Positions 4,190-35,733 of a DNA stretch of 64,000 nucleotides are shown one piece after another. Numbering within the stretch: the first letter of the stretch is position 1; each line of letters opens with the position of its first letter. Location: assembly GCA_963712745.1 (NCBI GenBank), contig CAVQJC010000020.1, positions 512,001 to 576,000 of the forward strand. Direction: 5' to 3'. The notes beneath the pieces were generated by a model. The model was given only the letters and a program-made list of their open reading frames with translations, had not been told where the DNA came from and made no database searches. Source of the DNA: an uncultured Chloroflexia bacterium (GTDB taxonomy: Bacteria > Chloroflexota > Limnocylindria > Limnocylindrales > CSP1-4). The position numbers and the translations under genes are program-made.

Positions 4190-5470
4190 TCAACCCGGTT
4201 CGCGGCGCGAACGGGAGACGCGCACCGACCCGCGGTCGACGACGATCTCGGCCGGCATGGGATGCGAGAGGAAGAGTGGCATGGACTCGCTGTAGCCGTA
4301 GGCGCCGGCGTCGAGCACCGCGAAGAGGTCGCCGGCCCGCGGTGCGGGTGCGCGCAGGTCGGAGGCGAGGATGTCGATACCGGTGCACAGCGGGCCGACC
4401 AGATCGACCCGGGCATCCGAAGAGCGCTCAGCTGCCGAACCCACCGGCAGCACGCGGTGATCCTGGCCCACCAGGCGCGGGCGCAACAGATGGTGGATAC
4501 CGCCGTCACTGACGGCCACCGAGCGGCCTCCCCGCACCTTGGTCCGAACGACACGGCAGAGATAGACCCCGGCCGGCGCGGCCAACCAACGGCCCGGCTC
4601 CAGCAGCAGCCGCGCCCCGCGAAGCGCCGGCCGCGTGGACCACGTATCCAACTCCCGGCCGATCCCCTCCCCCAGCGCAGCGAGGTCGAGGTCTGCCTCC
4701 CCGGCGGCATACGGAACGCCCAGCCCGCCCCCCGCGTCGAGCAGGGTCAGCTCCAGCCCGTGCCGCTCGGCGATGCGCTCGGTCCGCCGGGCCAGGTCGG
4801 CTACGCCCTCCACGAGCACGGCCGCCTCAAGCACGTTGGAGGCACCGAAGGCATGGAAGCCGCGCAGCACGAACGGCCCCTCGGGGGCGAGCGCGCCGGC
4901 TGCACGGAGCCGAGTGACCGCGGCGTCGGCCTCGTCGTCGGTAAGCCCGAACTTGACGTTGCCCGGGGCGCTGATGATGGGAAGTCCCTCGGCCTCGCCC
5001 TCGGTCGCCAGGCGCAGAGCCAGCCCCTGCCCAGGCTGCGCGCGGCCGGACATGGCCACGACCACGTCGAGCTCGTCGAGCGACTCGATCGTCAGCGCAC
5101 CCACGCCCGCGGTCAGCGCCTCCTCGATCTCCGCGTCGGTCTTGCCCGGGCCGGTGAAGACGACCCGGGCCGGGTCGAAGCCAGCGCGCAGGACCGCGCG
5201 CAGTTCGCCCCCGGAGGCGACGTCGGCACCGAGCCCGGCTGCGGCCAGCGTGCCCAGCACGTCGGGCGAGGAGTTGGCCTTGGTGGCGTAGGCCACCTCG
5301 ACCTCGCCCGGCAAGGCCCTGCGCAAGGCGGCCGCGCGGGAGCGCAACACTTCGGCGTCGTAGACGTACAAGGGGCTGCCGTAGGTGTGGGTGAGCTCGG
5401 CCGGGTCCAGGCCGGCGATGGTGCGCCCGACCTCGATGACGGGCGCAGCTGCCGTCGTCGCCCGACTCAC
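4190..5470 (-). CDS. lysA: Diaminopimelate decarboxylase (fold-type III PLP decarboxylase)
   Basis: GSPLYVYD, YATKAN, DVASGGEL, FTGPGK, DAGGG, LEPGR, VGPLCTGID and GAYG motifs. GTG start overlaps the dapD stop (GTGA). The 749-aa ORF-track start is an over-extension. Confidence 0.85.
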   Translation of the reverse strand: MSRATTAAAPVIEVGRTIAGLDPAELTHTYGSPLYVYDAEVLRSRAAALRRALPGEVEVAYATKANSSPDVLGTLAAAGLGADVASGGELRAVLRAGFDPARVVFTGPGKTDAEIEEALTAGVGALTIESLDELDVVVAMSGRAQPGQGLALRLATEGEAEGLPIISAPGNVKFGLTDDEADAAVTRLRAAGALAPEGPFVLRGFHAFGASNVLEAAVLVEGVADLARRTERIAERHGLELTLLDAGGGLGVPYAAGEADLDLAALGEGIGRELDTWSTRPALRGARLLLEPGRWLAAPAGVYLCRVVRTKVRGGRSVAVSDGGIHHLLRPRLVGQDHRVLPVGSAAERSSDARVDLVGPLCTGIDILASDLRAPAPRAGDLFAVLDAGAYGYSESMPLFLSHPMPAEIVVDRGSVRVSRSRREPG

Positions 5471-6399
5471 CGCAGAGCATCCTCCAGGGCCACCCGTGCG
5501 TCCGTGTTCGCGTCGCGGTACTTCACGATGAGCGGCACGGTCACCGAGATGCCCCTCTCCTGCGCCCACGCCGTGGTGGCCGGTCGCGTGCCCGGTATGA
5601 CCACCGCGCCGGACGGCACGACCAGCGGCGCGTCGGGCGTGCCGCGCAGCTCTCGCTCCTCGACCAGGTCGAACAGGCGGCTCTGGCCGGTGAGGATGGT
5701 GCCGGCACCGATGACGGCGCCGCGGCTGACGGTGACGCCCTCGTAGAGGCCTGCCCCACCACCTACGAAAGCGCCGTCCTCGACGATGACCGGCCGGGCG
5801 CCCGCCGGCTCCAGGACGCCGCCGATCTGGACCGCAGCACTGAGGTGGACAGCCTCGCCGACCTGGGCGCAGGAACCGACCAGCACGTGCGAGTCGATCA
5901 TCGTTCCCCGTCCCACCCAAGCGCCGATGTTGGCGTAGGCCGGCGGCATGATGGTCACGCCCGGTTCGAGATGAACGCCGCTGCGCACGGCGGTCCCGCC
6001 GGGGACGACGCGCCAGGGCGCTCCGGCGTCGGTGGCCGACCGAGCCGACGGACTCTCGAGCAGGTCCAGCAGGCCATAGGCCACCTTGTCCCGGGCAGCC
6101 ATGATCGGGCCATCCCGATACTCGCGCATGCCCGGCAGGCGAAAGCCCAGCAGGATGCCGGTCTTGACCCAGGCATCGACGCGCCAGCCTCCGTCGACCG
6201 ACGCGTCGGGAGCAGCCGCGCGCACCTCGCCGGCCTCGAGTGCCGTCACCAGCTCGGCCACCAGCGCGGCCACTTCCTCGAGCAAGGGCACGGCCGGCGC
6301 GCCCCCGGCCTCGGCCCAGGCCGCGTCGGCGGCAAGGACGCGTGCGGCCAGGGACGTCGCGCCGGGGACGGCGGCCTCGGCGGCCAGCTCGGTCGTCAT
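5467..6399 (-). CDS. dapD: Tetrahydrodipicolinate N-succinyltransferase
   Basis: WVKTGILLGFR, NIGAWVGRGTMID, VGSCAQVG and IGGVLEP hexapeptide region; located in the dap operon. Confidence 0.93.
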   Translation of the reverse strand: MTTELAAEAAVPGATSLAARVLAADAAWAEAGGAPAVPLLEEVAALVAELVTALEAGEVRAAAPDASVDGGWRVDAWVKTGILLGFRLPGMREYRDGPIMAARDKVAYGLLDLLESPSARSATDAGAPWRVVPGGTAVRSGVHLEPGVTIMPPAYANIGAWVGRGTMIDSHVLVGSCAQVGEAVHLSAAVQIGGVLEPAGARPVIVEDGAFVGGGAGLYEGVTVSRGAVIGAGTILTGQSRLFDLVEERELRGTPDAPLVVPSGAVVIPGTRPATTAWAQERGISVTVPLIVKYRDANTDARVALEDALR

Positions 6400-7322
6400 G
6401 CCGCGGCCACAGCAGCGGTCTCGAGCAGCCCCAGCTCATCGAGCACGCTGCGCAGCCGGGCGCGATTGGCGTCGTCCAGCGGCAGCATCGGCATGCGCAG
6501 GGCGTCGGTGATGAGGCCCATCTCGGCCATGGCCGCCTTCACTGGCGCGGGGCTGGTGGTGATGAAGTTGGCGCGGAAGAGGCCGAGGTAGCGGTAGTGG
6601 ATCGCGCGGGCGGTGTCCATGTCACCGGCGCTGGCCGCCGCGCACAGCTCGACCATCACCTGCGGCACCTCGTTGGAGGCCACCGAGATGACGCCATCGC
6701 CGCCCACGCCCATGATCGGCAGCGTCCAGCTGTCGTCGCCAGACAGCACCGCGAAGCCCTCCGGCCGGTCACGCACGATGGTCATGATCTGCTCCATGTT
6801 GGCCGAGGCCTCCTTCACGGCCACGATGCGCTCGTGCTCGGCCAGGTGCATGAGCGTGTCGGCGCCCACGTTGCCGCCGGTGCGGCCGGGCACGTTGTAG
6901 ACCACCACCGGCAGGCCGCCCTCGTCGGCCACGGCGCGGTAGTGGGCCTCGAGCATGCGCTGGTCTGGCTTGTTGTAGTAGGGCGAGACCACGAGCGCCG
7001 CGTCGGCTCCCACCTCCGCGGCCTGACGGGTGTAGTCGATGGCGTGCTGGGTCACGTTGGACCCGGTGCCGGCGATGACGGGAATGGTGCCGGTCATGCC
7101 ACGGCGCCGCACCGTCTCGACGGTGAGCTCGATGACGCGGCGATCTTCCTCCGTGCTCAAGGTCGGTGATTCGCCGGTCGTGCCCACCGGCACCAGGCCG
7201 TTGATGCCGGCGTCGATCTGGCGTTCGACCATGCGCACGAGGGTGGGCTCGTCGAGCGATCCGTCGGCGTTCATGGGAGTGACGAGGGCGGTGATGGCAC
7301 CGCTGAGGGTCGGAGTCGTCAT
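6396..7322 (-). CDS. dapA: 4-hydroxy-tetrahydrodipicolinate synthase
   Basis: TALVTP, GTTGES, PYYNKP, YNVPGRTG, KEAS and LSGDD motifs. Confidence 0.97.
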   Translation of the reverse strand: MTTPTLSGAITALVTPMNADGSLDEPTLVRMVERQIDAGINGLVPVGTTGESPTLSTEEDRRVIELTVETVRRRGMTGTIPVIAGTGSNVTQHAIDYTRQAAEVGADAALVVSPYYNKPDQRMLEAHYRAVADEGGLPVVVYNVPGRTGGNVGADTLMHLAEHERIVAVKEASANMEQIMTIVRDRPEGFAVLSGDDSWTLPIMGVGGDGVISVASNEVPQVMVELCAAASAGDMDTARAIHYRYLGLFRANFITTSPAPVKAAMAEMGLITDALRMPMLPLDDANRARLRSVLDELGLLETAAVAAA

Positions 7323-7343: not shown

Positions 7344-8096
7344 TCAGGCGGTCCGCTCGCGGACCAGGGTCGTGAACTGGGTGATGCCTTGTCGGTCTGG
7401 CTGCTCGAGCAGGGTGTCGGCTGCGAGCAGGGCTCCGGCCACGTAGGCGGAGCGGTCACGTGCCTCGATGCGGACCTGGAGCGCCTCACCCGGGCCATCG
7501 AAGCCCACGGTGTGCATGCCCGGATGGCTGCCGGCGCGCAGGGCCACTACCTCCAGCACGTCTGGATCCGGCGCGCCGCTGCCCGTGGCCAGGCGCGCCT
7601 CGCGCTTCGAGCGGAGGTGAGGTACGAGTCGATCGGCCACCGCCAGGGCGGTGCCCGACGGTCGGTCGGCCTTGGCTGCGCGATGCTGCTCGAAGAGGTA
7701 GGGGTCGTAGTCACTGAAGTTGCCGAACAGTCGGGCGGCGTACTCGGCGATGTCACCGAAGAGGACGGCGCCAAGGCTGAAGGTCGGCGCCACCACGGCC
7801 CGCGCGCCGTTCCCGTCAAGCCGGGCCGCGAGCGCGGCGCCGGTGTCATCAGCGAGGCTCCAGCCGGTGGTACCGATGATGAACGCGCGGCAGCCGGCTG
7901 CCAGGCCAAGATCGATGTGCTCGAGCAAGGTCGAGTGGTGGCTGAACTCGAAGGTGACATCGACCGCTGCCAGGTCGTCGGCGGCCGGGTAGCCGGTCTC
8001 GCGCCCGGCGATCGCGGCGACCTGGTCCCCTCGTTTCTCGAGCGCGCCCGCGATGGCGCTGCCCATGTTGCCAGAGCCGGTGATGAGTGCTCGCAT
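7344..8096 (-). CDS. dapB: 4-hydroxy-tetrahydrodipicolinate reductase
   Basis: Rossmann GSGNMG, IGTTGW and EQHRAAKADRPSGTA motifs; ATG at 8096 after a GAGGA SD. Confidence 0.92.
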   Translation of the reverse strand: MRALITGSGNMGSAIAGALEKRGDQVAAIAGRETGYPAADDLAAVDVTFEFSHHSTLLEHIDLGLAAGCRAFIIGTTGWSLADDTGAALAARLDGNGARAVVAPTFSLGAVLFGDIAEYAARLFGNFSDYDPYLFEQHRAAKADRPSGTALAVADRLVPHLRSKREARLATGSGAPDPDVLEVVALRAGSHPGMHTVGFDGPGEALQVRIEARDRSAYVAGALLAADTLLEQPDRQGITQFTTLVRERTA

Positions 8097-8159: not shown

Positions 8160-8200
8160 AAACAAAAAGACCGCAGTCACCCTCGTCGGTGTCTGCGGCC
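8160..8200 (-). terminator. Intrinsic terminator (attenuator) in the dapB leader
   Basis: mRNA GGCCGCAGACACC-GACGAG-GGTGACTGCGGTC followed by TTTTTGTTT, between the leader peptide and dapB. Confidence 0.8.
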
Positions 8201-8251
8201 CTCGGAGCCTTGCCTAGCGGCCCCGAGTCGGTCGTTCCCGAACGAAGCCGT

Positions 8252-8314
8252 CTAGGCCCGTGCCTCCAGGCAGGGCCGCGTGGGCTTCGGCTTGAGAACG
8301 TACTGGTACTGCAT
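8252..8314 (-). CDS. Putative Lys-sensing leader peptide MQYQYVLKPKPTRPCLEARA
   Basis: 20 codons, ATG 10 nt after a -10 box, AAG Lys codons at positions 8 and 10, followed by antiterminator and terminator, upstream of the lysine biosynthesis operon. Confidence 0.7.
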   Translation of the reverse strand: MQYQYVLKPKPTRPCLEARA

Positions 8315-8324
8315 CCGATGGCGG

Positions 8325-8353
8325 AGTCTGCCGGGTCGGGGCGGCCACGTCAA
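8325..8353 (-). promoter_or_regulatory. Sigma70-type promoter of the dap leader
   Basis: TTGACG-N17-CAGACT on the minus strand. Confidence 0.65.
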
Positions 8354-8397: not shown

Positions 8398-9762
8398 TCA
8401 TGCCGCGACCTCGCCCTCCGTGCGCCCCCACCACGCCTCGAACGCATCGAAGCTCGGCGCGATGGGCTCGGGCAGGGTGGCGCTGTCGTCGCCGGCCAGC
8501 ACGTCGAGCGTCTTGAGGCCGTTACCGGTGATGACCAGCACGGTCTCCTCGTGGCGGCGCAGACGACCCTCGTCGATGGCCCGGCGCAACGCGGCCAGGG
8601 TCACACCGCCGGCGGTCTCGGTGAGGATGCCCTCGGTCTCGGCCAGCAGGCGGATGCTGTCGATGGTGGCCTCGTCGGGCACGCCGATGATGGCCGCGTC
8701 GCTCTCGCGTGCCTGGCGGATGGCGTAGCCCCCGTCAGCGGGTGAGCCGATCGACAAGGAGCGCACGATGGTATCGGGCTTCTCCACCGGCCGGACCAGG
8801 TCGGTCCCAGCGGCAAAGGCGTCGGCGATGGGCGCGCAGCCGTTGGCCTGGCCGCCAAAGAAGCGGACCGAAGCTTCGTCCAGCAGGCCCACGTCGACGA
8901 GCTCGCCGAAACCGCGCTGGAGCTTGGTGTACATGGAGCCGGAGGCCAGTGGCGCGAACAATGCATCAGGGGCTCGCCATCCGAGCTGCTGTGCGATCTC
9001 GTACGAGATCGTCTTGGAGCCCTCGGCGTAGTAGGGGCGCAGGTTGACATTGAGCACGGCCCAGCCTTCGAGCTCGTCGGTCAGCTCCAGGCACAGGCGG
9101 TTGACGTCGTCATAGGGGCCGTCGACCCGAACCACGGTGGCGCCCAGGGCGCGCGCCTGGGAGATCTTGGCGGCCTCGAGGTCGGCCGGGATGAACACGA
9201 CCGCGCGCAGGCCGTTGGCGGCAGCCGCGGCAGCGACGGCAGCGGAGAGGTTGCCAGTCGAGGCGCAGGCAAGCGTGTGGTAGCCCCATTGCCTGGCGCG
9301 GGCGGCAGCCACGGCCACCGGTCGGTCCTTGAAGGAGAGCGTGGGGTTGCGCGAATCGTCCTTCACCCACAGCTTGTCCAGCCCCACTCGCGCGGCCAGG
9401 CGGGGGGCATCGGTCAGCGGTGACTGGCCCACGCGCAGCCCGGACGTCGGCAGCTCGGTGACAGGCAGCAGCTCGGCATAGCGCCAGAGGGTCGCCTCAC
9501 GAGCATCGAGCGTCTCGCGGCTGATACGTGCCCGGATGCCCTCCAGGTCGTACACCGGCTCCAGCGGGCCAAAGCAGCGGGTGCACACGAAGACGGGCGC
9601 GTCCGCGGCTTCCCCGCCGCAGGCGCGGCAGCGCAGGCCGGTGAAACCGGGAACGAAGCCTCGCTCGGCCGAGGTCGTGGGCGGGCTCGATGCGGTACCC
9701 GCGGCGGGGGCGTCTTGTATGTCGGCGGTGTCGGACTGCGGGCGGATGGCGATCTGCGTCAT
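8398..9762 (-). CDS. thrC: Threonine synthase-family PLP enzyme with N-terminal Zn ribbon (possibly O-phosphohomoserine sulfhydrylase)
   Basis: CRAC..CTRC ribbon; NPTLSFKDR, CASTGN, EGSKT and VITGNGLK motifs; ATG at 9762 after GAGAGG. Confidence 0.8.
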   Translation of the reverse strand: MTQIAIRPQSDTADIQDAPAAGTASSPPTTSAERGFVPGFTGLRCRACGGEAADAPVFVCTRCFGPLEPVYDLEGIRARISRETLDAREATLWRYAELLPVTELPTSGLRVGQSPLTDAPRLAARVGLDKLWVKDDSRNPTLSFKDRPVAVAAARARQWGYHTLACASTGNLSAAVAAAAAANGLRAVVFIPADLEAAKISQARALGATVVRVDGPYDDVNRLCLELTDELEGWAVLNVNLRPYYAEGSKTISYEIAQQLGWRAPDALFAPLASGSMYTKLQRGFGELVDVGLLDEASVRFFGGQANGCAPIADAFAAGTDLVRPVEKPDTIVRSLSIGSPADGGYAIRQARESDAAIIGVPDEATIDSIRLLAETEGILTETAGGVTLAALRRAIDEGRLRRHEETVLVITGNGLKTLDVLAGDDSATLPEPIAPSFDAFEAWWGRTEGEVAA

Positions 9763-9813
9763 CAGGGGGATCCTCTCGGGTCGGAGCGGCCTGGCCGGCC
9801 GCAAGTGCTCGTG

Positions 9814-9853
9814 AATCACGAAGGCCGCGACCTTCGCTTCGTTGGTCGCGGCC
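9814..9853 (-). terminator. Putative attenuator hairpin in the thrC-like leader
   Basis: Perfect 10-bp stem GGCCGCGACC/GGTCGCGGCC with an 11-nt loop; weak U-tract (TTCGTGATT). Confidence 0.6.
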
Positions 9854-9901
9854 CCTGGGATCCGGCCTGATGTCGAGCGCTGCGTTCGGGCGCGCCCGGC
9901 C

Positions 9902-9964
9902 TCAGACCCCGACCGATCCCGGCGGGGCCTCGGGCATCGCCATGCGAGTACCGTGCAGCTTCAT
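9902..9964 (-). CDS. Putative Met-sensing leader peptide MKLHGTRMAMPEAPPGSVGV
   Basis: 20 codons, ATG 7 nt after TACCAT (leaderless), Met codons at positions 8 and 10; the stop codon lies within a long antiterminator helix. Confidence 0.65.
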   Translation of the reverse strand: MKLHGTRMAMPEAPPGSVGV

Positions 9965-9971
9965 CGGCCGG

Positions 9972-10001
9972 ATGGTAGACGGGAGACCCGGTAATTGGCA
10001 A
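9972..10001 (-). promoter_or_regulatory. Sigma70-type promoter of the thrC-like leader
   Basis: TTGCCA-N18-TACCAT on the minus strand. Confidence 0.65.
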
Positions 10002-10060
10002 CCCCTTCAGTACACATATGCACGATACGGCGGACTACTCACTAGTCCCGTGCTCGTGAC

Positions 10061-10095
10061 TGCATAGTGATGCGCCCCTGCTGTATAGTCACGAG
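10061..10095 (+). promoter_or_regulatory. Tandem ARG boxes overlapping the argR -10 (autorepression)
   Basis: TGCATAGTGATGCG (10061) and a degenerate TGTATAGTCACGAG (10082) at 21-bp period. TATAGT -10 at 10084-10089, 6 nt before the GTG. Confidence 0.6.
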
Positions 10096-10614
10096 GTGAG
10101 CCCATCGAGTCGACCCGGTTCTTCGCGCGCCCTCAAGCGGGAGCGCCAGCTTCTCATCCGCGAGCTCGTCGCGACCGGCGCGGTGGCCAACCAGCACGAG
10201 CTGGTGGAGCTGCTGGCAGCGCGCGGCTACGAGGTGACCCAGGCGACCGTCAGTCGTGACGTCACCGAGCTGGGCCTGGTCAAGACGACTGCCGACGGCC
10301 GGCACGTCTATTCGGCCCCTGGCGACCTCGGGGGTGCGCCACCGCCCAGCGACGAACGGTTGTGGCGGATCCTGGCCGACTACCCCGTCCGCATCGGGCG
10401 CTCGGGGCTGACGTTGCTGCTAGTGTCGGAGGCCGGCGTGGCCAACGCCATCGGCCAGGCCATCGACGAGTCGACGTTCCACGAACAGGAAGGCACGCTT
10501 GCGGGTGACAACACCATCCTCGTCCTCTTCGCCGACGAAGGCCGCCTCGAGGCGTGGCTGGAGCGCTTCGAGGCGCTTCGCGCTGCCGTGTCGATGAGGG
10601 GATACGCAGGATGA
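10096..10614 (+). CDS. argR: Arginine repressor
   Basis: VTQATVSRD winged HTH and GTLAGDNT arginine-binding motif. Confidence 0.95.
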   Translation: MSPSSRPGSSRALKRERQLLIRELVATGAVANQHELVELLAARGYEVTQATVSRDVTELGLVKTTADGRHVYSAPGDLGGAPPPSDERLWRILADYPVRIGRSGLTLLLVSEAGVANAIGQAIDESTFHEQEGTLAGDNTILVLFADEGRLEAWLERFEALRAAVSMRGYAG

Positions 10615-11330
10615 CGATGCTCGGCGACGAGCCGGAAGAGCAGGGGCCGGCCACCAAGCCGTTGAAGATCCTGGTGGTCGACGACGAGCCGGCCATGGTC
10701 GGCGCGATGGGTGCGCTGCTGGGCCAGGCCGGCCATCGCATCATCGCGGCCTACGACGGCGAAGAGGCCCTACGCCGCTTCCGTGATGAGGAACCCGACC
10801 TGGTGCTGCTCGACCTGGCCATGCCGGGCATGGACGGGGCCACGGTCTGCCGGCGCATCCGGGACGTCAGCGACACGCCCATCATCGTGGTCTCGGGAGA
10901 ACGCGACGACACCGCCACCGTGGAGCTGCTCGATATCGGGGCCGACGACTACGTGCGCAAGCCGTTCCGTGCTGACGAGCTGCTGGCGCGGGTGCGTGCC
11001 GTCTCGCGGCGATCGGCCGGCAGCCGCGGCGACCGGGCCAAGGGTGACCCGTCCGGCTATGAGCTCGACCGGCGCCGCCACGAGATCCGCTGGCAGGGCA
11101 CGCCGTTGCCCACGACGGTGACAGAGTTCCGCTTGCTGCAGGCCATGGTCGAGCGGCTGGGCGAGGTCGTTCCGCACGAGGAGCTGTTGGCAGCGGGCTG
11201 GCCGGATGTGCCCGACCCCGACCCGCTGTGGCTGAAGCCACACCTCGCGCGCCTGCGCGAGAAGCTGGTCACCGCGGGAGCGCCGGTGCCGGTGGCCGTG
11301 CGCGGTGTGGGCTACCGACTCGACGCCTAG
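10611..11330 (+). CDS. OmpR/PhoB-family response regulator
   Basis: ILVVDDE, LLDLAMPG, GADDYVRKPF, wHTH LARLREKL..VRGVGY; ATGA overlap with the argR stop. Confidence 0.93.
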   Translation: MTMLGDEPEEQGPATKPLKILVVDDEPAMVGAMGALLGQAGHRIIAAYDGEEALRRFRDEEPDLVLLDLAMPGMDGATVCRRIRDVSDTPIIVVSGERDDTATVELLDIGADDYVRKPFRADELLARVRAVSRRSAGSRGDRAKGDPSGYELDRRRHEIRWQGTPLPTTVTEFRLLQAMVERLGEVVPHEELLAAGWPDVPDPDPLWLKPHLARLREKLVTAGAPVPVAVRGVGYRLDA

Positions 11331-14472: not shown

Positions 14473-15624
14473 ATGACTCGCTTCGATACCCGGCTGGCGC
14501 ACCTCGGCCGCTCGTCCGCGTACGCGGCCCGGACCGTCAATCCACCCCTGGCGCGCGCCAGCACGATCCTCTTCGAATCGCTCGACGATCTGCGCCACGC
14601 CCGGGCGGGGACCCCCTACGAGGAACCGCGCTACGGCATCTACGGCACGAGCACGACCTTCGAGCTGCAAACGGCGATGGCCGAGCTGTGCCAGACCGAG
14701 TCCTGTATCGCCACCGGCAGCGGCCTCACTGCCATCGCCGCCACGCTCTCGGCCCATGCCGCCCCCGGCTCGCGCATGCTCATCCAGGGTGAGGTATACG
14801 AGCCGACCCGGGACTTCGCCGAGAGCGAGATCAGCCCCATCTGCGAGGTGGTCTACTTCGACACGGTCGAAGAGCTGGAGGCCGCCATCGACGAGCGCAC
14901 CAGCCTCGTCTTCATCGAGGTCCCGACATCGCTGACGATGCGACTCATCGACGTTCGGGCGGTCTCCGCCCTCACCCACCGCGCGGCGGTTCCCCTGGCC
15001 TGCGACTCGACCTGGGGCACACCCCGCTTCTTCGACGCGCATGGGCTGGGCATCGACATCTCTATCCACGCGGGCACCAAGTACATCGGTGGCCACAGTG
15101 ACCTCATGCTCGGGCTCACCACCGGCACCTACGACGCGCTCCGGAGCACCCGCCAGTGGTGCGCCCACTACGGCTCCACGGCCGCGCCGGACGTCTGCTG
15201 GCTGGGCCTGAGGGGCCTGCGAACACTGAGCGTCCGGCTCGACCGGCACCAGGCCAGCGCCCTCACCGTAGCCAGCTGGCTGTCCGAGCAGCCCCAGGTC
15301 GCGCGGGTCTTCTACCCGGCCCTCCCCTCTGACCCGGACCACGAGCTATGGCAGAGGCAGTTCAGTGGCGCGCCGGGCCTGCTGAGCATCGAGCTTCGAG
15401 CGTGCGACGAGGCCGCCCATGCGCGCGTCATCGAATCCCTGGCGCTCTTCGGCCTGGGCGCCAGCTGGGGCGGCTTCGAGAGCCTGGTGCTGCCGGCCAC
15501 GCCCTACGCCGGCCGGACCCTCGACGCCCAGCCCGACGAGGGCCGCCTGGTCCGGCTGCATGTCGGGCTGGAGGATCCCGACGATCTCATCGCCGACCTG
15601 GCGCAGGCACTGGCTCGACTGTGA
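14473..15624 (+). CDS. metC: Cystathionine beta-lyase (Cys/Met PLP enzyme)
   Basis: VNPPLARASTILF, DSTW, HAGTKYIGGHSD, GASWGGFESL and RLHVGLED motifs. Confidence 0.88.
   Translation: MTRFDTRLAHLGRSSAYAARTVNPPLARASTILFESLDDLRHARAGTPYEEPRYGIYGTSTTFELQTAMAELCQTESCIATGSGLTAIAATLSAHAAPGSRMLIQGEVYEPTRDFAESEISPICEVVYFDTVEELEAAIDERTSLVFIEVPTSLTMRLIDVRAVSALTHRAAVPLACDSTWGTPRFFDAHGLGIDISIHAGTKYIGGHSDLMLGLTTGTYDALRSTRQWCAHYGSTAAPDVCWLGLRGLRTLSVRLDRHQASALTVASWLSEQPQVARVFYPALPSDPDHELWQRQFSGAPGLLSIELRACDEAAHARVIESLALFGLGASWGGFESLVLPATPYAGRTLDAQPDEGRLVRLHVGLEDPDDLIADLAQALARL

Positions 15625-16525: not shown

Positions 16526-16529
<4 letters not shown>
15621..16529 (+). CDS. Hypothetical protein, translationally coupled to metC
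   Basis: GTGA overlap with metC; GC3-biased 302-aa ORF ([19 protein letters not shown]). Confidence 0.75.
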
Positions 16530-20266
<3,737 letters not shown>

Positions 20267-20463
20267 CGTGCTCTCGTACCTCTCGAATCCGCCCACCGGC
20301 CCGCACCACCGCAGCGTGGTTGCATCATACGGCAGCAGGGCCTTGGGCCAAGACCGCAGCAGGGCCATCGGCCTGCCCACCCGCTCGAAGCCCGACGGAC
20401 ACCTGGCCGGCCCGTTGCCGTCGACACCCCCGGTGACCGGCGGCTCCGAACCTGCGGGGATGC

Positions 20464-20499
20464 GAAAGGTACCTACCAATCCGACCAATCTGCTAGACT
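20464..20499. promoter_or_regulatory. Putative GntR operator with divergent -10 boxes
   Basis: GAAAGGTAC-N11-ACCAATCTGC, shared with 45495-45524; TAGACT -10 (+) at 20494 and TACCTT (-) at 20466-20471. Confidence 0.5.
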
Positions 20500-20520
20500 C
20501 GGCACGATGGAGTCGAGCTC

Positions 20521-24498: not shown

Positions 24499-25458
24499 AT
24501 GCCCTTTGCCCGCACCGTCCTCGGCGACATCGCACCCGAGGAACTCGGCATCGTCTACGCCCATGAGCACCTCGTCATCCACGGGGGGCGCCCTGTCCAG
24601 TTGTTCCCGGACTTCGAGCTGGCCGACGTGGGCAAGGCCGTGGCCGAGCTTGCTCCCGCGCAGGACCTGGGCTTGCGCACGGTCGTCGACGCCATGCCCG
24701 CCGACTGCGGTCGCGACGTGCTCATGCTGGCCCAGATCGCCCGACAAAGCGGGGTCAACGTCATCGCGCCGTCCGGCCTCCATCACGAGCGCTACTACCA
24801 CGACCGCCACTGGTCGGTGCGCCTGGGCGCCGAGGAGATCGCCGACCTCTTCGTGGCCGACATCGAGGACGGCATCGACGAGCTCGACTACAACGGACCC
24901 ATCGTCAAGCGCACCGAGCACAGGGCCGGCGTGATGAAGGTCGCCGGCTCCACCGACGGCCCGTCGGCACGCGACGAGAAGGTCTTCGCCGCTGCCGCCA
25001 TGGCCCAGCGCCGCACGGGTTGCCCCATCCTGACCCACTGCGAGGGCGGCACCGGTGCGCTCGAGCAGGTGGAGCTGCTGGTCAGGCACGGCAGCGACCC
25101 GGCGCACATCGTCCTCTCCCACGTCGACAAGGTGGTCGACCGTGGATACATGCGCGAGATCGCCGCCACCGGTGCCCGCGTCGAATACGACCAGGGCTTC
25201 CGCTGGGGGGAGGCCGAGAACGGCACCCTGCAGTTGCTCGAGTGGGCGGCTGAAGACGGCCTGCTCGGCCACATCACGCTGGGGCTCGATGCGGCCCGAC
25301 AGGGGTATTGGATCCAGTTCGGGGGCGCGCCCGGCTGGACCTACCTGCTGGGGGAGTTCGCCGGTCTCATGCGTGAGCGCGGGCTCGGCGACGCCGAGCT
25401 GCATAGCCTGTTCGTCGAGGCACCGGGAGGTGCCTACACCTTCGGAGAGCCAGCATGA
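24499..25458 (+). CDS. Phosphotriesterase-related amidohydrolase/lactonase
   Basis: HEH, K of GVMKVA, THC, SHVD and D metal ligands. Confidence 0.9.
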   Translation: MPFARTVLGDIAPEELGIVYAHEHLVIHGGRPVQLFPDFELADVGKAVAELAPAQDLGLRTVVDAMPADCGRDVLMLAQIARQSGVNVIAPSGLHHERYYHDRHWSVRLGAEEIADLFVADIEDGIDELDYNGPIVKRTEHRAGVMKVAGSTDGPSARDEKVFAAAAMAQRRTGCPILTHCEGGTGALEQVELLVRHGSDPAHIVLSHVDKVVDRGYMREIAATGARVEYDQGFRWGEAENGTLQLLEWAAEDGLLGHITLGLDAARQGYWIQFGGAPGWTYLLGEFAGLMRERGLGDAELHSLFVEAPGGAYTFGEPA

Positions 25459-26615
25459 CACCGCGTGAACGGATCCTGGCCGCGCTCGACCACCGCGAGT
25501 CCGACCGCATCCCCATCGACATGGGCAGCTCCATCGTGACCTCCATCACCCGGGCTGCCTATGAACCTCTGCGCGAGTACCTGGGCTTGCCGGCCGAGGA
25601 GGTCGTCGTCTACGACGAGGTGCAGCAGCTGCCCTACGTGGGTGAGGATGTGCTCACCCGTTTCGGCGTCGACACGCGCATGGTCCAGCTGCCGCCCACG
25701 CACGTGAAGGGCGTGGAGATCGTGGACGAGGGCGACTACTGGGCGATGTGGGATCGCTGGGGCGCGAAGATGCGCATGCCCAAGGACAAGCCCCTCTACT
25801 ACGACTGGGTCGAGTTCCCCATCAACGACATGGAGCTCTCCACGCTGGAGTCCTACCGGTGGCCCGAGCCCGACCCGCCCGAGCTCATCGCCGACCTTGG
25901 CACCAGGGCCCAGGAGCTGCGCGCGACGACCGACTACGCCCTGATCGGCTCGGGCGTCATCGGGGGCGGCATCTTCGAGCAGTCCTGCCGGGTCATGGGC
26001 ATGGAGCCGTTCATGATGTCGATGCTCATGGAGCCGCCATTCGCGAACAAGCTGGCCGATCGCATCACCGATATCTACATCGAGTCGGTCGACCGCTATC
26101 TCGGCCAGGTGGGCGAGCTCATCGACGTCTTCACCTTCTGGGACGACGTGGCCACGCAGCAGGGCTGGATGATCAATCCCGACTCCTACGTCGAGGTCAT
26201 CAAGCCGCGTCAGAAGCGCCTCTTCGCTGCTATCAAGGAGCGCACCGAGGCCAAGATCTTCTATCACGGCTGCGGCGCGGTCTACGAGCTCATCCCGCAC
26301 CTCATCGAGATCGGGGTGGACATCATCAACCCGGTGCAGGTCAGCGCCGAGGGCATGGACTCCGCCCGCTTGAAGAAGGCCTACGGGGACGACATCGTCT
26401 TCTGGGGCGGCGGCGTGGACACGCAGAAGGTGCTGCCCTTCGGCACGCCGCAGGAAGTGCGTGACGAGGTCAAGCGCCGCATCGACGACTTCGCCCCCGG
26501 TGGCGGTTTCGTCTTCGCCACCGTGCACAACATCCAGGCCTACGTGCCGCCGCAGAACATCGAGGCTGCCTTCGACACGGCCCTGACCTACGGTGCCAGT
26601 CCCGCCGCGGTCTAG
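25455..26615 (+). CDS. UroD/MtaA-CmuA-family methyltransferase-like protein #1
   Basis: MTPRER..DRIPID, DRWG, FYHGCG, NPVQ, FWGGGVDTQ and HNIQ motifs. Confidence 0.88.
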   Translation: MTPRERILAALDHRESDRIPIDMGSSIVTSITRAAYEPLREYLGLPAEEVVVYDEVQQLPYVGEDVLTRFGVDTRMVQLPPTHVKGVEIVDEGDYWAMWDRWGAKMRMPKDKPLYYDWVEFPINDMELSTLESYRWPEPDPPELIADLGTRAQELRATTDYALIGSGVIGGGIFEQSCRVMGMEPFMMSMLMEPPFANKLADRITDIYIESVDRYLGQVGELIDVFTFWDDVATQQGWMINPDSYVEVIKPRQKRLFAAIKERTEAKIFYHGCGAVYELIPHLIEIGVDIINPVQVSAEGMDSARLKKAYGDDIVFWGGGVDTQKVLPFGTPQEVRDEVKRRIDDFAPGGGFVFATVHNIQAYVPPQNIEAAFDTALTYGASPAAV

Positions 26616-30009: not shown

Positions 30010-30092
30010 CCCCGGGCGGCCCCCGTCCGGCAGTCCTTCGGCACTGGTGCCACGCGGCCCTGTTGCCCGAGCCTTGGAACACGGGAGGGGCC

Positions 30093-31259
30093 ATGCCGAC
30101 AGGGAATCAGATCGTTCCGGACCAGGCTCGTACAGCCGACGTGCTGGCACGCATCGGGGCCGCCTACCGGCACGAGGATGTGCCGGGACCGGCGGTCCTC
30201 ATCGGCGACGCCAACTACTGGATCACCGGCGAGGATCCGGCCCTCATCCCAAGCGACTACTTCGACGACGGCGCCTTTGACACGATGCTGGCCTTCCAGG
30301 AGGCCAAGATCGCGGCGCACCTCGCGAACATCCCCGATGACGTGTACATCCCCTACCTCTTTCCCTGGTATGGCACCGGCGTAGTGCCCTCGGCCATGGG
30401 CTGCCGCATCCTCTTCCAGCGCGGCGAAGAGCCGGCCGTCGAGGGTCCCTTCATCGACGACCCCGCAGACGTCGCCCGGCTCGAGCTCCCCCATCCGCAG
30501 CGAGATGGGCTGATGCCCCGGGTGCTCGCCTGCATCGACCACTTCCGGGCCCACTCCGCCCTGCCCATCAGCTTCACCGACAGCCAGGGCCCCCTCAATA
30601 TCGCCCTCAACCTGGTGAGCCTCGAACGCCTGTGCATCTGGATGTTCGAGCGCCCCACTGTCGTCCACGACCTGATGGACCTCTGCACCACCGCGCTCAT
30701 CGAGTGGATCCGAGTGCAGAAGGAGCGCGCGCGGACGCCGCTCGACAGAGGCGCGTTTCCGCACATGATCGCCATACCGCCCGGGTTCGGCGGGGTTTGG
30801 CTCTCCGACGACGACAGCACCGTGCTCTCACCCGAGCTCTATCGCGAGTTCGTGGTGCCCTACAACGGTCGCGTCTTCGAGGTCTTCGGTGGGGGCACGC
30901 TGCACTACTGCGGCAACGCCCGTCACCAGCTGCAGAACTACCTGGCTACGCCCGGGCTGGTGGGGCTCAACGCCTGGTGCATGGGTGAGTTCGGGCAGAT
31001 CTTCGAGGCCCAGCGGATCATCGGTGACCGGGCGGTGATCATGGTCTGCGACTACACGCCCACCGATGTGGAGGCCTACTTCCGCGACCTCTTCGCGGGC
31101 CTGCGCACGCGTGGAACGATCGTTGCCACCTACCCGTCGGCAGCCACCGCGCTCAACTACGGCACCGCGCAGGTGGTACCCGTCCGGCGTGACTCGGTCG
31201 CGACCGCGCGACGCGCGTGGGAGACCATCGCCCGCGTCAGTGAAGGGAGCAGTCGATGA
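30093..31259 (+). CDS. UroD/MtaA-family protein #3
   Basis: TDSQGPLNIA, LSDD..LSPELYREFVVPY and LHYCG motifs; GGGAGG SD. Confidence 0.8.
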   Translation: MPTGNQIVPDQARTADVLARIGAAYRHEDVPGPAVLIGDANYWITGEDPALIPSDYFDDGAFDTMLAFQEAKIAAHLANIPDDVYIPYLFPWYGTGVVPSAMGCRILFQRGEEPAVEGPFIDDPADVARLELPHPQRDGLMPRVLACIDHFRAHSALPISFTDSQGPLNIALNLVSLERLCIWMFERPTVVHDLMDLCTTALIEWIRVQKERARTPLDRGAFPHMIAIPPGFGGVWLSDDDSTVLSPELYREFVVPYNGRVFEVFGGGTLHYCGNARHQLQNYLATPGLVGLNAWCMGEFGQIFEAQRIIGDRAVIMVCDYTPTDVEAYFRDLFAGLRTRGTIVATYPSAATALNYGTAQVVPVRRDSVATARRAWETIARVSEGSSR

Positions 31260-32456
31260 GCCAGCAGCACGGGTCGATGACCGGCCGCCAGCGCTTCGAG
31301 GCGGTGTTCCGGGGCGAGCTGCCCGACCGCGTCCCGGTAACGCTCTTCATCCAAGACCAGGGCCACTTCATCAGCCAGCTCCACCCCCATATCGACCCCT
31401 GGGACTCACTGTCGCTTCAGCTCAAGACGGTCGGATTCCAGCGTGAGCTGGGCGCGGACATCATGGCCCGGCTGCTCTTCGGCACACTCGCCGAGTTCCA
31501 GTGGATGCTCCTTGGCGGCCTCGACGTGAGCCGCTCCACCGACGACTGGCAGGTGGAGACGTCGGAGCGGCGAGAGGGGCGGACGACCGTTCGGAGCTCG
31601 GTCATCCATACGCCCGAGGGCGACCTCGAACAGGAGTACTCGATCGACGAGATCCGTCCGGGCACGCTCATGTATGCCTGCACCAAGAAGCCCGTCCACA
31701 GCCGCGAGGACCTCGAGCTGGTCGCCGCCTACGAGCCGGGCATGCGGCCGGACTACCCCGATCGCGTGGCTCGCATGGTCGCCCCCATCCGAGAGGCGGT
31801 CGGTGACGACGGCTGGGTCGGCGTGTGGGCCCCGCACGGCCCCTTCAACATGGCTTCACTGCTGGTCACCGAGGACGTCCTCTACTCGCTCTTCTACGAG
31901 GATCCCGACGTACTACCGACGGCTGATGGAGGTGTCGTTGGCACGAGTGCACGACTACACTCGGGCGCTCGACGCGCCGGGCGTGGACATCCTCTTCGTC
32001 GGCGGCAACGTGCCCGGCGGCTTCATCGGCCGACCCAACTACGAGCAGCACGTGCTCGAGTGGGAAGCGCGCCATGTCGCTTGGGTGCAGGATCGCGGCA
32101 CGCCCGCCTCCTATCACAACTGCGGCCAGATCCAGGTGCTGGTCGAAGCCTACAAGCGTCTCGGCGTGGCGGCCGTGGAGCCATTCTCACCGCCGCCCAA
32201 GCTGGGCGACGCGGACCTTGCAGAAGCCAAGCGAGCGGTCGCTGGCGACTACGTCATCATCGCCGGCATCGACCAGGTGGACGTCATCCAGAAGGGCAAC
32301 GTCGAAGCTGTCCGCCGAGCCACAGCGGAGGCCATGCACATCGGCAAGCCGGGCGGCCGCTTCGTGCTGCAGAACGCCGACTTCCTGGAGTACGGCACGC
32401 CCGTGGCGAACGTGGAGGCCTTCGTCGAGACGGCCATCGAGGGCGCCTGGTACTAG
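31256..32456 (+). pseudogene. UroD/MtaA-family protein #4 with a +1 frameshift near 31910 (probably a sequencing error)
   Basis: Frame A MTGRQRF..PDRVPV..EDPD joins frame B YYRRLME..SYHNCG..GIDQ..GGRFVL if one base is removed. Confidence 0.8.
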
Positions 32457-33046: not shown

Positions 33047-34468
33047 CTAGCGCTTGACGCGGTCGATGATCTCCCCGTCGGGCGAGAGCAACTGGATGTC
33101 CAGCGCCATGTCGCCGAGCGCGTGCGTCGAACAGGACAGGCAGGGGTCGTAGCAGCGGATGACCGCTTCGACCCGGTTGAGCATCGGCTCCTGGATCTTC
33201 TCGCCCTTCACGTGGTGGCGGGCCACCTGCTGCACGGAGCGGTTCATGGCCATGTTGTTGTGGCCGGTGGCGATGACCAGGTTGGCCCACTCCACGAGGC
33301 CGTCGTCGTCGACCCGGTAGTGGTGCATCAGCGTGCCGCGGGGAGCTTCGGAGACGCCGATGCCCTCGTTGCGGTTGATGCCGGCCGTGGCGAGCACGTG
33401 CCTGGACAGGATGTCCGGGCTGCGCAGGATCTGCTCGATCTTCTCGATCGCGTGCAGCGTGTCGATGAGCCGGGCGTAGTGGTAGTGGAAGGACGAGCCG
33501 GCCACACGACCGACTCGCCAGCGGAACTTCTGCAGCTCCTCGTCGGCACGCGGGGTGCCGGTCGCCTCGGCCACGTTGAGGCGCGCCAGCGGACCTACGC
33601 GATAGATGCCGTCGGGATAGCCCATCGGCTTGTAGTAGGTGGACTTGAGGTAGGACCACGGCTCCACGGCCTCGCCGATGTAGTCGTTGAAGTCCTTGGG
33701 ATTACCGCGGTCGACCAGCGGACTGCCGTCGGCATCGATGATGCGCAGGTCGCCGCCGTAGTGGTCGACATTGCCCTTCTCGTCGACAAGGCCCATGAAG
33801 GCGGAGCGGAAATTGCCGAAGGTCGACGCCTCCTCCTCCCACTTCATCATGTCGGTCTTGTACCAGGCGATGGCCCGCTGGAGCTGGGCGATGGCCTCGG
33901 GCACACCGGCCAGGATCTGGTCGCGGACCTCCTCGCTCAGCGGGTCGGCCACGCCTCCGGGCACGATGCCCCCCGGATGGATGCGCTTGCCGCCGAGCAG
34001 CGCGATGATCTCCTGGCCCCACTTGCGCAGGCCGATACCGTCCTTGGCCAGCTGCGGGTTCTCCTGGGCCACCGCGATGATGTGGCGCTTGGAGGAATCG
34101 GCGTCGAAGCCGAAGAGCAGGTCCGGCGAGGAGAGGTGGAAGAACGAGAGTGCGTTCGACTGGACGATCTGGCCGAGGTTGATGAGACGGCGCAGGTCCG
34201 CGCCTGTGGGCGGGGGGTCGACGGCCAGGATGTCGTCGACGGCCTTGGCCGAGGCGACCAGGTGGCTGACAGGGCAGATGCCGCAGATGCGCGCCATGAT
34301 GGCCGGCATCTCGTGGACCGGGCGGCCCTGGACGATGCGCTCGAACCCGCGGAACTGGGTCACGTGGAAGCGGGCGTCCGTGACCTCACCCTGCTCGTCG
34401 AGCTGGATAGTGATCTTGGAGTGGCCCTCGATCCGCGTGACCGGATCGATGGTGATCGTTCGACTCAT
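33047..34468 (-). CDS. hoxH: Group 3d NiFe hydrogenase large subunit
   Basis: TRIEGH, L1 ARICGICPVSH, APRG, L2 RCYDPCLSCSTH plus a cleavable C-terminal tail. Confidence 0.96.
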   Translation of the reverse strand: MSRTITIDPVTRIEGHSKITIQLDEQGEVTDARFHVTQFRGFERIVQGRPVHEMPAIMARICGICPVSHLVASAKAVDDILAVDPPPTGADLRRLINLGQIVQSNALSFFHLSSPDLLFGFDADSSKRHIIAVAQENPQLAKDGIGLRKWGQEIIALLGGKRIHPGGIVPGGVADPLSEEVRDQILAGVPEAIAQLQRAIAWYKTDMMKWEEEASTFGNFRSAFMGLVDEKGNVDHYGGDLRIIDADGSPLVDRGNPKDFNDYIGEAVEPWSYLKSTYYKPMGYPDGIYRVGPLARLNVAEATGTPRADEELQKFRWRVGRVAGSSFHYHYARLIDTLHAIEKIEQILRSPDILSRHVLATAGINRNEGIGVSEAPRGTLMHHYRVDDDGLVEWANLVIATGHNNMAMNRSVQQVARHHVKGEKIQEPMLNRVEAVIRCYDPCLSCSTHALGDMALDIQLLSPDGEIIDRVKR

Positions 34469-34480
34469 GCTGGGGGGCTC

Positions 34481-35020
34481 CTATCGACCGAACCGTGAAC
34501 CGGCCGCCTCGGGGACGCGGCCGGAGAGCAGGTCATCGAGCAGGGTGTAGATGAGGTCCGCTGAGGGCGGGCAGCCCGGCAGGAAGACGTCGACGTCGAC
34601 GATCTTGTGGACCGGCGTCGACATGGGCAGCAAGGCCGGCACCACCTGGGTCGGCATCTGCGCGTTGATGGTCACGTTCTCGCGGTACGAACGATCCATC
34701 AGCGGCTCGACGCCGATGGGGTTGCGCATACCGGGCACGTTCGAGGTCACGGCGCAGTCGCCGAAGGCGATGATGGTAGTGGTGTGCTCGCGGACCAGTT
34801 TGACCTTGTGCAGGTCGTCCTCGCTGGACACCGCGCCCTCGACCAGGCAGACATCCACGTGCTCGGGGTAGTCCTTCCAGTCGACCAGCGGGCTGTAGAC
34901 GAGATCGGCCCGGCTGAAGATGTCGAGGATGCGCTCGTCCATGTCGATGAGCGACATGTGGCAACCCGAGCAGCCGTCCAGCCAGACGGTCGCGACTGAT
35001 GGCTTCCTTGACTCACTCAT
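34481..35020 (-). CDS. hoxY: Hydrogenase small subunit
   Basis: WLDGCSGCHMS, FGDCA and LPGCPP motifs. Confidence 0.95.
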   Translation of the reverse strand: MSESRKPSVATVWLDGCSGCHMSLIDMDERILDIFSRADLVYSPLVDWKDYPEHVDVCLVEGAVSSEDDLHKVKLVREHTTTIIAFGDCAVTSNVPGMRNPIGVEPLMDRSYRENVTINAQMPTQVVPALLPMSTPVHKIVDVDVFLPGCPPSADLIYTLLDDLLSGRVPEAAGSRFGR

Positions 35021-35733
35021 AGACCGCGCTCCTCTCGGACCACCTTGAGCCACGGCAGGAACGGGCGGCGGTCCTTGCTACCGGCTGCGACCGGTCGGCC
35101 CTTCTCGAAGAGCGCCCCGGTGGGACAGACCTGGACGCACTTGCCACAACTGGTGCATGTCGTGGACTCGCCCCAAGGGGCGCCCATGTCCGTCTGGACA
35201 CGGGTCTCGAGGCCACGATGCATGACGTCCCAGGTGTGTGCGCCCTCGATCTCGTCGCAGACCCGCACACAGCGGAGGCACAGGATGCAGCGGTTGTGAT
35301 CGATGGCGAAGAACTTGTGACTGGCGTCGATATCGACGGCAGGGTTGATGCGGGGCAGGTCGAAGTGCTTGATGCCAAGCTCGTCGGCCATGTCCTGGAG
35401 TTCGCAGTGGTTGTTGGCGACGCACACGGCGCACACGTGATTGCGCTCCATGAACATCATCTCGGTGATCGCCTGGCGGTACTCCAGCAGCTTCTCCGAG
35501 TGCGCGGTGATGTCCATGCCCTCGGCGATCTTGGTCATGCAGGCAGCCGCGAGCTTGGGTGAGCCCGCGATCTCGACCATGCACAGACGGCAGGCACCAC
35601 GGTCGGTGATGCCCTCGAGGTGACACAGGCCCGGGATGTCGATGCCGTTCTCTTCGGCCACTTCCATCACGGTCTGGCCTTCGTTGCCGGCGACGTCCTT
35701 GCCGTCGATGGTCAGCGTGAAGACATCGCTCAT
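35017..35733 (-). CDS. hoxU: Diaphorase Fe-S subunit
   Basis: CH..GACRLC, HVCAVC..C, CILCLRC and [12 protein letters not shown] motifs. Confidence 0.95.

Follow-up and report, generated by a model that had tools for sequence, protein, structure and literature searches.

A 64,000-nucleotide (nt) stretch of high-GC DNA from an uncultured Chloroflexia bacterium (contig CAVQJC010000020.1, positions 512,001 to 576,000; hereafter the window) carries, ahead of a gene annotated as threonine synthase (thrC), a compact leader with a short open reading frame (sORF) of 20 codons, two of which are internal methionine codons. This Met leader is probably a ribosome-mediated transcription attenuator of the leader-peptide type, which would read the charging of elongator Met-tRNA and control the downstream MetM-like gene. 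The assignment draws on comparison with related loci and on folding models of the nascent transcript. All features of the Met leader lie on the minus strand, and their positions are given in window coordinates.

In the proposed mechanism, transcription would start at the sORF AUG or no more than two bases away from it, so that the leader would be translated as a leaderless mRNA. As the 3′ half of the sORF (segment A) emerges, it would pair with a downstream segment B and thereby hold part of the 5′ arm of a terminator-like hairpin, which makes the A:B pairing an antiterminator. When Met is plentiful, the ribosome would clear codons 8 and 10, enter segment A and strip it from B, and the GC-rich hairpin could then form and stop RNA polymerase at the tail. 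When Met-tRNA is scarce, the ribosome would wait at Met8 or Met10, the last positions that leave segment A free, and would also open a small hairpin that the Met-codon stretch forms with A. The A:B pairing would persist, RNA polymerase would read through and the gene would be expressed. Scarce initiator Met-tRNA would act in the same direction, since an untranslated leader keeps the A:B pairing in the model. In this scheme we infer where transcription starts, that the sORF is translated, that polymerase terminates at the tail and that Met is the signal, as well as what the enzyme does.

The sORF (9964..9902) encodes MKLHGTRMAMPEAPPGSVGV in 20 codons, from the ATG at 9964..9962 to the TGA at 9904..9902, and regulation is proposed to act through Met8 (9943..9941) and Met10 (9937..9935), the latter directly ahead of Pro11. 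Upstream lies a promoter-like site (10001..9972) consisting of TTGCCA (10001..9996), an 18-nt spacer and TACCAT (9977..9972). No other sigma-70-like site was found in 9600..10200, for which 50 shuffles gave an expectation of 0.0. Because TACCAT ends 7 nt ahead of the ATG at 9964, there is no space for a Shine-Dalgarno sequence before the sORF, and this spacing makes the leaderless start plausible. The original prediction had described exactly such a leaderless frame, and the frame is present as described. In orthologs read by eye, a −10-like hexamer of the NANNNT type ends 6–8 nt ahead of the sORF start codon. The 205-nt leader of the window folds at −108.6 kcal/mol, compared with −91.9 ± 4.8 kcal/mol for its shuffles (z = −3.47; 1 of 200 shuffles equals it). 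The divergently transcribed argR gene (plus strand) has a TATAGT at 10084..10089, followed after 6 nt by a GTG start at 10096, and appears to be leaderless too, which suggests that leaderless mRNAs are common in this organism.

Relatives of the Met leader were collected by searching genome contigs with the downstream protein, which returned 78 loci. Among these, 35 are of the Chloroflexota type, 33 of them with upstream DNA, and together with the window they form a set of 34 leaders. The closest loci, with protein identities of up to 86%, come from metagenome-assembled genomes labelled Candidatus Limnocylindrales/Limnocylindria or Chloroflexia. The leader was found in all 33 Chloroflexota loci with upstream DNA, 28 times through a motif of 14 bases at the hairpin foot and five times by eye. 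A hidden Markov model (HMM) built from the leader alignment matches each leader locus exactly once and nothing else in the window or the 78 loci; no extra copies ahead of other genes were found with nhmmer in this material. One of the leader-bearing records (L022), whose protein is 74% identical to that of the window and which combines the Met leader with the Lys leader described below, is titled 'uncultured Gammaproteobacteria bacterium', a taxonomic label that may be wrong.

The sORF is present in 34/34 leaders, with 20 codons in 30, 19 codons in two and 22 codons in two, and the 19- and 22-codon forms also keep an in-frame stop. The start codon is ATG in 31 cases and GTG in three, the stop codon TGA in 30 and TAG in four. 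Residue 10 is Met and residue 11 is Pro in every leader, while residue 8 is Met in 33 of the 34 (Leu in L016), which places M8 and M10 among the most conserved residues of the sORF. Between them, residue 9 is Ala in 29 leaders, Val in four and Thr in one. The original prediction had named conservation of M8 and M10 in orthologous leaders as a check on Met sensing, and no leader in the set lacks both internal Met codons. Residues 2–7 are highly variable, with nine different amino acids at residue 2 and eight at residue 6, yet the number of codons in this interval is fixed in 32/34 leaders. Taken at the level of sequence, the leader sORF thus behaves as a translated frame. Near-matches to ATGGCGATGCCC occur at 52293, in a 10-codon frame encoding MTMPTTPWRA, and within genes, and were judged to be chance. 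Of the sORFs in the window with the same residue at positions 8 and 10, solely the Met leader and the Lys leader are intergenic.

The RNA of the leader can be divided into a few segments that pair in alternative ways. Segment 0 (9933..9942; UGGCGAUGCC) spans the Met codons and can pair with GGCCCCGCC just downstream to form a small hairpin, as predicted with RNAalifold. Segment A (9902..9929) is the 5′ strand of the antiterminator; it reaches from the third base of codon 12 to the stop codon and reads GGCCCCG, CC, GGGAUC, GGUC and GGGGUCUGA. Segment B (9850..9870), the 3′ strand, reads UCAGGCC, GGAUCCC, A and GGGGCC. Between the two lies a variable hairpin (9871..9901), of which the stem but not the sequence is kept in alignments and folds. 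In the window, A and B form 19 standard pairs over 20 positions. The terminator-like hairpin (9813..9855) runs from GGGGCCGCGACC to GGUCGCGGCCUU; the arms of its core, 9853..9844 and 9832..9823, are complementary at 10 of 10 positions, and it is followed by the tail (C)UUCGUGAUUC. The last 4 nt of segment B, or up to 7 nt in some orthologs, are part of the 5′ arm of the terminator; in the window, the GGCC at 9853..9850 is common to both structures. Most of this layout had been anticipated: the long pairing predicted between 9929..9902 and 9871..9850 exists, with its boundary corrected by one base to 9870, the 4 nt taken from a 10-bp hairpin at 9823–9853 are the GGCC just named, and the U tract that had been called weak is indeed a poor one (CUUCGUGAUUC, 9823..9813).

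Both alternative structures are maintained among the 34 leaders. In the A:B pairing, 90.9% of 671 alignment cells are standard pairs, compared with 23–61% when the partners are slid by 1–3 columns; five pairs (8 cells) are changed on both sides, a number that 3 of 500 shuffles reach. The mean energy of the A:B duplex is −34.7 kcal/mol, versus −24.5 kcal/mol with B shuffled. The middle helix, usually GGGAUC:GAUCCC, is rewritten on both strands in L018 and L019 (AGGAC:GUCCU) and in L078 (CGAACG:CGUUCG), and given these helices the alignment statistics understate the compensation in A:B. The terminator hairpin is kept in 34/34 leaders, with 99.5% of its cells paired and three pairs changed on both sides. 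In the segment 0:GGCCCCGCC hairpin, 93.6% of cells are paired and changes are one-sided only. Taken together, the terminator and the small hairpin have 97.4% of their cells paired, versus 36–50% in slid controls. Two leaders, L018 and L028, have an ordinary U tract behind the hairpin (CUCUUUUGUUUG and UUUUGUUGUUUUC, respectively), which points to the hairpin being a terminator and not just a stem. A further pairing proposed by RNAalifold, between GGAUC in segment A and GAUUC in the tail, was rejected: L019 has the tail without GGAUC, and L018 and L028 are without the tail.

The conservation of the peptide itself could be taken to mean that the nascent chain is the sensor, in the manner of TnaC or SpeFL, with MxMP..AP.G stalling on Met or S-adenosylmethionine (SAM) in the exit tunnel, or stalling at the polyproline motif APPG. 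P11 and P14 are both invariant, A13 and G16 are each present in 31/34 leaders and PPG occurs in 22/34, and PPG is a strong stall motif that depends on elongation factor P. Such an arrest peptide is unlikely, however, as residues 12–20 are encoded in strands of the A:B and A-internal helices, so that RNA pairing explains their conservation, and any of P, S, T, D, V, E, N and R occurs at residue 15. A stall at codons 15–16 would moreover cover segment A and lead to termination whatever the Met level. The Lys leader, which has the same architecture with two residues changed to match its operon, bears the signature of codon-level sensing.

Attenuation by ribosome position was examined in a nascent-transcript model, in which the RNA is cut just before the 3′ arm of the terminator and the ribosome masks the bases from P−12 to P+11, counted from the first P-site base. 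The model was applied to 29 Met leaders, that is, the 34 without five that were added later. The mean probability of the A:B pairing, scored at its distal helix, is 0.78 without a ribosome, 0.86–0.90 with the A site at codons 6–9 and 0.66 at codon 10, and falls to 0.00–0.02 at codons 11–18. Since the probability collapses from codon 11 onward, codon 10 is predicted to be the furthest point at which a stalled ribosome spares the antiterminator. Values rise again at codons 20–22 through pairing across the ribosome, and these were discounted. The exact critical codon depends on the assumed footprint: with a footprint of +15 nt, the sole dip in terminator probability moves to codons 6–8. A ribosome scan at equilibrium was also tried and dropped as a model of the switch, as it gives the terminator nearly everywhere, with a shallow dip at A-site codons 6–8.

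The strongest argument that codons are sensed, and not a peptide or an aptamer ligand, comes from a second leader of the same design in the window, which differs in two codons that match its operon. This Lys leader (8160..8353, minus strand) lies between the stop codon of the MetM-like gene and dapB, 1.6 kb downstream of the Met leader, and is followed by dapB (8096..7344, minus strand), dapA, dapD and lysA. Promoter-like hexamers (TTGACG, 8353..8348; CAGACT, 8330..8325) precede a sORF of 20 codons (8314..8252; MQYQYVLKPKPTRPCLEARA), which runs from ATG to TAG and whose codons 8 and 10 specify Lys; downstream, a canonical terminator (~8200..8169) is followed by UUUUUGUUU (8168..8160). An HMM search found the Lys leader in 27 loci in addition to the window, and another copy is cut by the end of its locus. 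A K-x-K arrangement is present in all 28 Lys leaders read, at positions 8/10 in 26, at 9/11 in L011 and at 11/13 in L028; three have K-K-K. In both leaders the 5′ edge of the antiterminator lies at nt 36. Nascent folding of 19 Lys leaders gave mean antiterminator probabilities of 0.51 without a ribosome, 0.97–0.99 with the A site at codons 7–9, 0.83 at codon 10 and 0.00–0.01 at codons 11–19.

The two leaders thus share a promoter-proximal start, a length of 20 codons, sensing codons 8 and 10 and the profile of stall positions. The Lys leader differs in having AAG instead of ATG codons, a canonical U-rich terminator and a Pro11 that is not invariant, and its −10 hexamer lies 8–10 nt from the ATG, versus 6–8 nt in the Met leader. 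The Met-leader HMM matches the Lys leaders weakly and collinearly (E-values 0.03–0.4), and neither a lysine riboswitch nor another Rfam family matches at the Lys leader. Among the lysine genes, a 749-residue frame (4190..6439, minus strand) from the mechanical list of frames is probably spurious: lysA (4190..5461) makes up its C-terminal part, and an overlapping frame with high third-position GC (5467..6399) encodes a DapD-like tetrahydrodipicolinate succinyltransferase.

The original prediction had also raised sensing of several aspartate-family amino acids at once (Met, Lys and Thr), through K2 and T6 in addition to M8 and M10. In its full form, this reading takes the enzyme to be a true threonine synthase. 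The window peptide does have both K2 and T6, and the gene annotated thrC stands beside genes for lysine synthesis. Across the leader set, however, this suggestion finds no support and is highly improbable: neither residue is conserved (K2 in 13/34, T6 in 19/34), 19 of the 34 peptides are free of Lys and eight are free of Thr, and the lysine genes are served by a K-x-K leader and a terminator of their own.

That a sensor of Met makes sense at this gene follows from its homologs in other phyla, which carry a SAM-I riboswitch and, in many cases, a ThiS-type sulfur carrier. The regulated gene (8398..9762, minus strand) encodes a pyridoxal phosphate (PLP) enzyme of 454 residues, annotated as threonine synthase, with a Cys-rich N-terminal extension. 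Solved threonine synthases align with it from residue 91 onward only, while relatives from other phyla align from residue 10–43 onward, extension included, with 46–52% identity. Upstream of the gene, a SAM-I riboswitch (RF00162, 47–86 bits) was detected in 38 of 43 non-Chloroflexota loci (Actinomycetota and Planctomycetota), its 3′ end about 50–330 nt from the matched coding region; by batch, the counts were 20/20, 6/9 and 12/14, and one of the last two misses is a locus without upstream DNA. Many of these loci have a downstream frame of about 91 residues that ends in GG, and all four of those checked belong to the ThiS family. In Streptomyces albulus, metM is reported with an upstream SAM riboswitch (PMC12172450), and the combination of a SAM riboswitch with a ThiS-type carrier has been described for metM-metO (PMC12172450; PMC13759103, Table 2 and supplement S1D). 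The metM-metO route leads from O-phosphohomoserine to homocysteine (PMC12172450, PMC13759103), and MetM 'is often misannotated' as threonine synthase (PMC13759103).

A scan of 11 Chloroflexota loci detected no Rfam family. In a quick maximum-likelihood tree built from 67 full-length proteins, with 12 partial rows omitted, the leader-bearing proteins fall on one side of a branch with a support of 100 in the Shimodaira-Hasegawa-like approximate likelihood-ratio test (SH-aLRT), and the SAM-I homologs on the opposite side. With midpoint rooting, the earliest-branching leader-bearing protein is that of L078, a locus in which the Met leader and a ThiS-type neighbour are both present. On the simplest reading, the two types of Met/SAM sensor were exchanged at the base of the leader-bearing clade. 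The regulated enzyme can be placed in a MetM-like group and is probably a homocysteine synthase that acts on O-phosphohomoserine; MetM depends for this reaction on the thiocarboxylate of its carrier MetO. Methionine genes lie near the regulated gene in the window, with a PLP enzyme of Cys/Met metabolism (14473..15624, plus strand) and the metH region (16526..20488, minus strand) at distances of 5–10 kb.

As the physiological niche of the Met leader is that of SAM-I riboswitches in other phyla, an RNA-only sensor has to be considered, that is, a riboswitch of an undescribed kind with SAM, Met or a related metabolite as its ligand, in which the conserved stretch would be an aptamer and the sORF incidental. 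Nucleotide conservation would fit such a sensor, as it is very high and includes third positions, with invariant columns through ATGGCGATGCCC and GGCCCC. Nevertheless, a riboswitch is quite unlikely here. Rfam gave no relevant match up to an E-value of 1 in 9000..11000, where only a chance match to a small nucleolar RNA occurs at 10758, and no family reached its gathering score anywhere in the window. Start, stop and frame of the sORF are kept in 34/34 leaders; its 5′ 18 nt are free in sequence and kept in length in 32/34, as would be expected of a counted frame more than of an aptamer. The Lys leader swaps exactly two codons to AAG ahead of lysine genes, and the two alternative helices account for the conserved stretches.

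With Met as the probable signal, the output has to be assigned. The original prediction had called the element a translational attenuator; its Met sensing is supported by the conserved M8 and M10, the SAM-I riboswitches of the homologs and the Lys leader, while its translational output probably gives way to attenuation of transcription driven by translation, because the most conserved output element is the terminator hairpin. In a purely translational scheme, the 5′ part of segment B would mask the Shine-Dalgarno sequence (GAGAGGA, 9777..9771) and the AUG (ATG, 9762..9760) of the regulated gene, and the hairpin would be purely structural. The full-length minimum-energy fold of the window indeed pairs CAUCAGG..GGAUCC of segment B with GGAUCCCCCUGAUG (9760..9777). 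The mean unpaired probability of the Shine-Dalgarno-AUG region is 0.38 with the ribosome at codon 9 versus 0.31 at the stop codon, and its openness gains more than 0.1 in 13/34 leaders, with no loss of that margin in any. Mycobacterial cysteine sORFs, too, are reported to use unmasking of the ribosome-binding site (RBS) (10.1101/834739).

On the other side, the predicted effect is small, and in the window it is zero (0.19 in all three states). Deeper-branching leaders have Shine-Dalgarno sequences of the AAGGAG or ACAGGAG type without a match to B, and the presence of GAGAUCC in B is not consistently matched by GGAUCUC in the Shine-Dalgarno region, with L001 and L002 breaking the pattern. L018 and L028 have true U tracts. 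Masking of the RBS by segment B, suggested by the fold of the window and by L004 and L029, was therefore rejected as a general output, being neither general nor large in effect, and a purely translational output of the leader is improbable.

Several observations weigh against the proposed attenuator or its assignment to methionine. For the RNA, 32/34 leaders have a poor U tail (UUCGUGAUUC in 26, close variants in five and a different poor tail in L078), a consensus scan of 9600..10200 found no terminator-like site, and the antiterminator takes only 4–7 nt of the terminator 5′ arm. The pairing figures show that the helices are maintained and are not strong proof of covariation, because the tested structures came from the sequence of the window, an origin that gives them an advantage over the slid controls, and because the relatives are so alike in sequence that double-sided covariation is modest. 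Equilibrium folding of the complete leader gives a mean terminator probability of 0.88–0.99 at every ribosome position, and 0.96 throughout in the window; as equilibrium favours the terminator in nearly all states, any switch here must be kinetic. For the sORF, just two sensing codons are present and they are not adjacent. The third positions beside the Met codons are frozen as well (GCG in 29/34, CCC in 33/34), and as Met has one codon, the invariance of the ATGs does not show whether the peptide or the RNA is under selection.

For the gene, the regulated protein scores as thrC in NCBIfam (TIGR00260, 253.6 bits against a cut-off of 167.1), and every named relative is called threonine synthase, a name that is of no help in telling ThrC and MetM apart. 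Formation of threonine in vitro is reported for a cyanobacterial homolog of similar distance, which has 51.6% identity to MetM (PMC12172450). A ThiS/MetO-type frame was not found in the window or in the other leader-bearing loci, with L078 as the sole exception. For a true threonine synthase, which would compete with Met synthesis for O-phosphohomoserine, control by Met would still be sensible, but with a sign opposite to that of the RNA model. Confidence in the attenuator is limited by the predicted switch being kinetic and not thermodynamic, and by the putative nature of the enzyme's activity.

Compared with known systems, the Met leader follows a classical logic. Like the classical attenuators (trpL, hisL, thrL, leuL, pheL and the ilv leaders), it has a short frame with sensing codons that probably match the end product, mutually exclusive antiterminator and terminator-like structures, and an antiterminator 5′ strand within the 3′ part of the frame, so that the position of the ribosome would decide. 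It differs from them in its probable sensing of Met, in having its two codons split as X-n-X at the fixed positions 8 and 10, in its probably leaderless start and in its occurrence in Chloroflexota (Limnocylindria-like). Without translation of the leader, the model predicts read-through, not super-attenuation as in the classical attenuators. The particulars of the Met leader would be new: Met codons, a fixed split pair, a probably leaderless start, read-through when untranslated and its phylum. No leader peptide with Met or Lys codons was found in the literature searched, largely that outside subscription journals, and an earlier description is possible. The passages of a 2005 actinobacterial survey that deal with Met and Lys describe them as riboswitch-controlled and give no attenuator (PMC1262725).

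The polycysteine leaderless sORFs of mycobacteria, in which pausing at Cys codons is reported to relieve an inhibitory RNA structure and unmask the RBS (Canestrari et al., 10.1101/834739), are similar to the proposed Met attenuator in several respects: a leaderless sORF is the first cistron, ribosomes pause at codons for an amino acid of the pathway, and several loci may share the signal, as in the proposed 'ribulon'. In contrast to them, the Met leader has two Met codons, a conserved terminator hairpin and weak masking of the RBS, and belongs to another phylum. The window peptide contains no Cys, and one Cys occurs at the variable residue 12 in 1/34 leaders. The Met leader thus appears to work partly like the mycobacterial attenuators without being a member of that group. 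With the SAM-I (S-box) riboswitch upstream of metM-metO it shares the genomic position, the homologous gene and, as proposed, Met/SAM status as the physiological variable; the riboswitch differs in that its aptamer binds SAM directly and independently of translation, and the Met leader has no Rfam match.

The surroundings of the Met leader in the window are rich in genes for methionine, arginine (argG, argH and argR) and lysine. Between the Met-leader promoter and argR (10015..10095) there is a TGCATATGTGTACT stretch together with a 9-bp perfect inverted repeat, CTCGTGACT (10053..10061) with AGTCACGAG (10087..10095), and orthologs carry words resembling ATATGCATA at the same place. These elements resemble ARG boxes and may be ArgR operators. 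The B12-dependent methionine synthase gene metH (16526..20266, minus strand) is preceded at its likely start by a GC-rich leader of about 250 nt (20267..20520), in which neither an Rfam match up to an E-value of 1 nor a copy of the Met leader was found. Further away, four genes of the URO-D family (MtaA/CmuA-like) and a gene for a protein with a B12-binding domain (25455..26615, 30063..31259, 31674..32456, 38531..39649 and 39857..40477) suggest corrinoid-dependent methyl transfer, and a cluster resembling NiFe-hydrogenase and NADH dehydrogenase occupies 33047..37975.

It is possible, though somewhat less likely than not, that the Met and Lys leaders belong to a modular family of promoter-proximal, probably leaderless 20-codon attenuators in this lineage, in which codons 8 and 10 set the amino acid (ATG for Met, AAG for Lys) and new specificities arise by duplication of the leader and a swap of two codons. 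The Met version would then have taken the place of an ancestral SAM riboswitch and, among natural sensors of Met-tRNA charging, would be the first that relies on internal Met codons. Members for other amino acids may exist elsewhere in these genomes, and the 5′ AUG of the Met leader could allow it to integrate the supply of initiator and elongator Met-tRNA.

Textbooks present Met and Lys biosynthesis as examples of control by riboswitches, the S-box and the L-box, respectively. If the proposed attenuators operate, ribosome-based sensing can replace metabolite-binding RNAs, for Met and Lys in one lineage and with identical codon positions, and its specificity can be re-programmed by two codon changes. 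As a compact and testable scaffold, the Met leader could serve engineered amino-acid sensors. The regulatory argument also suggests that a widespread 'threonine synthase' of these uncultured soil bacteria is an enzyme of the methionine pathway, which would alter metabolic reconstructions of this group.

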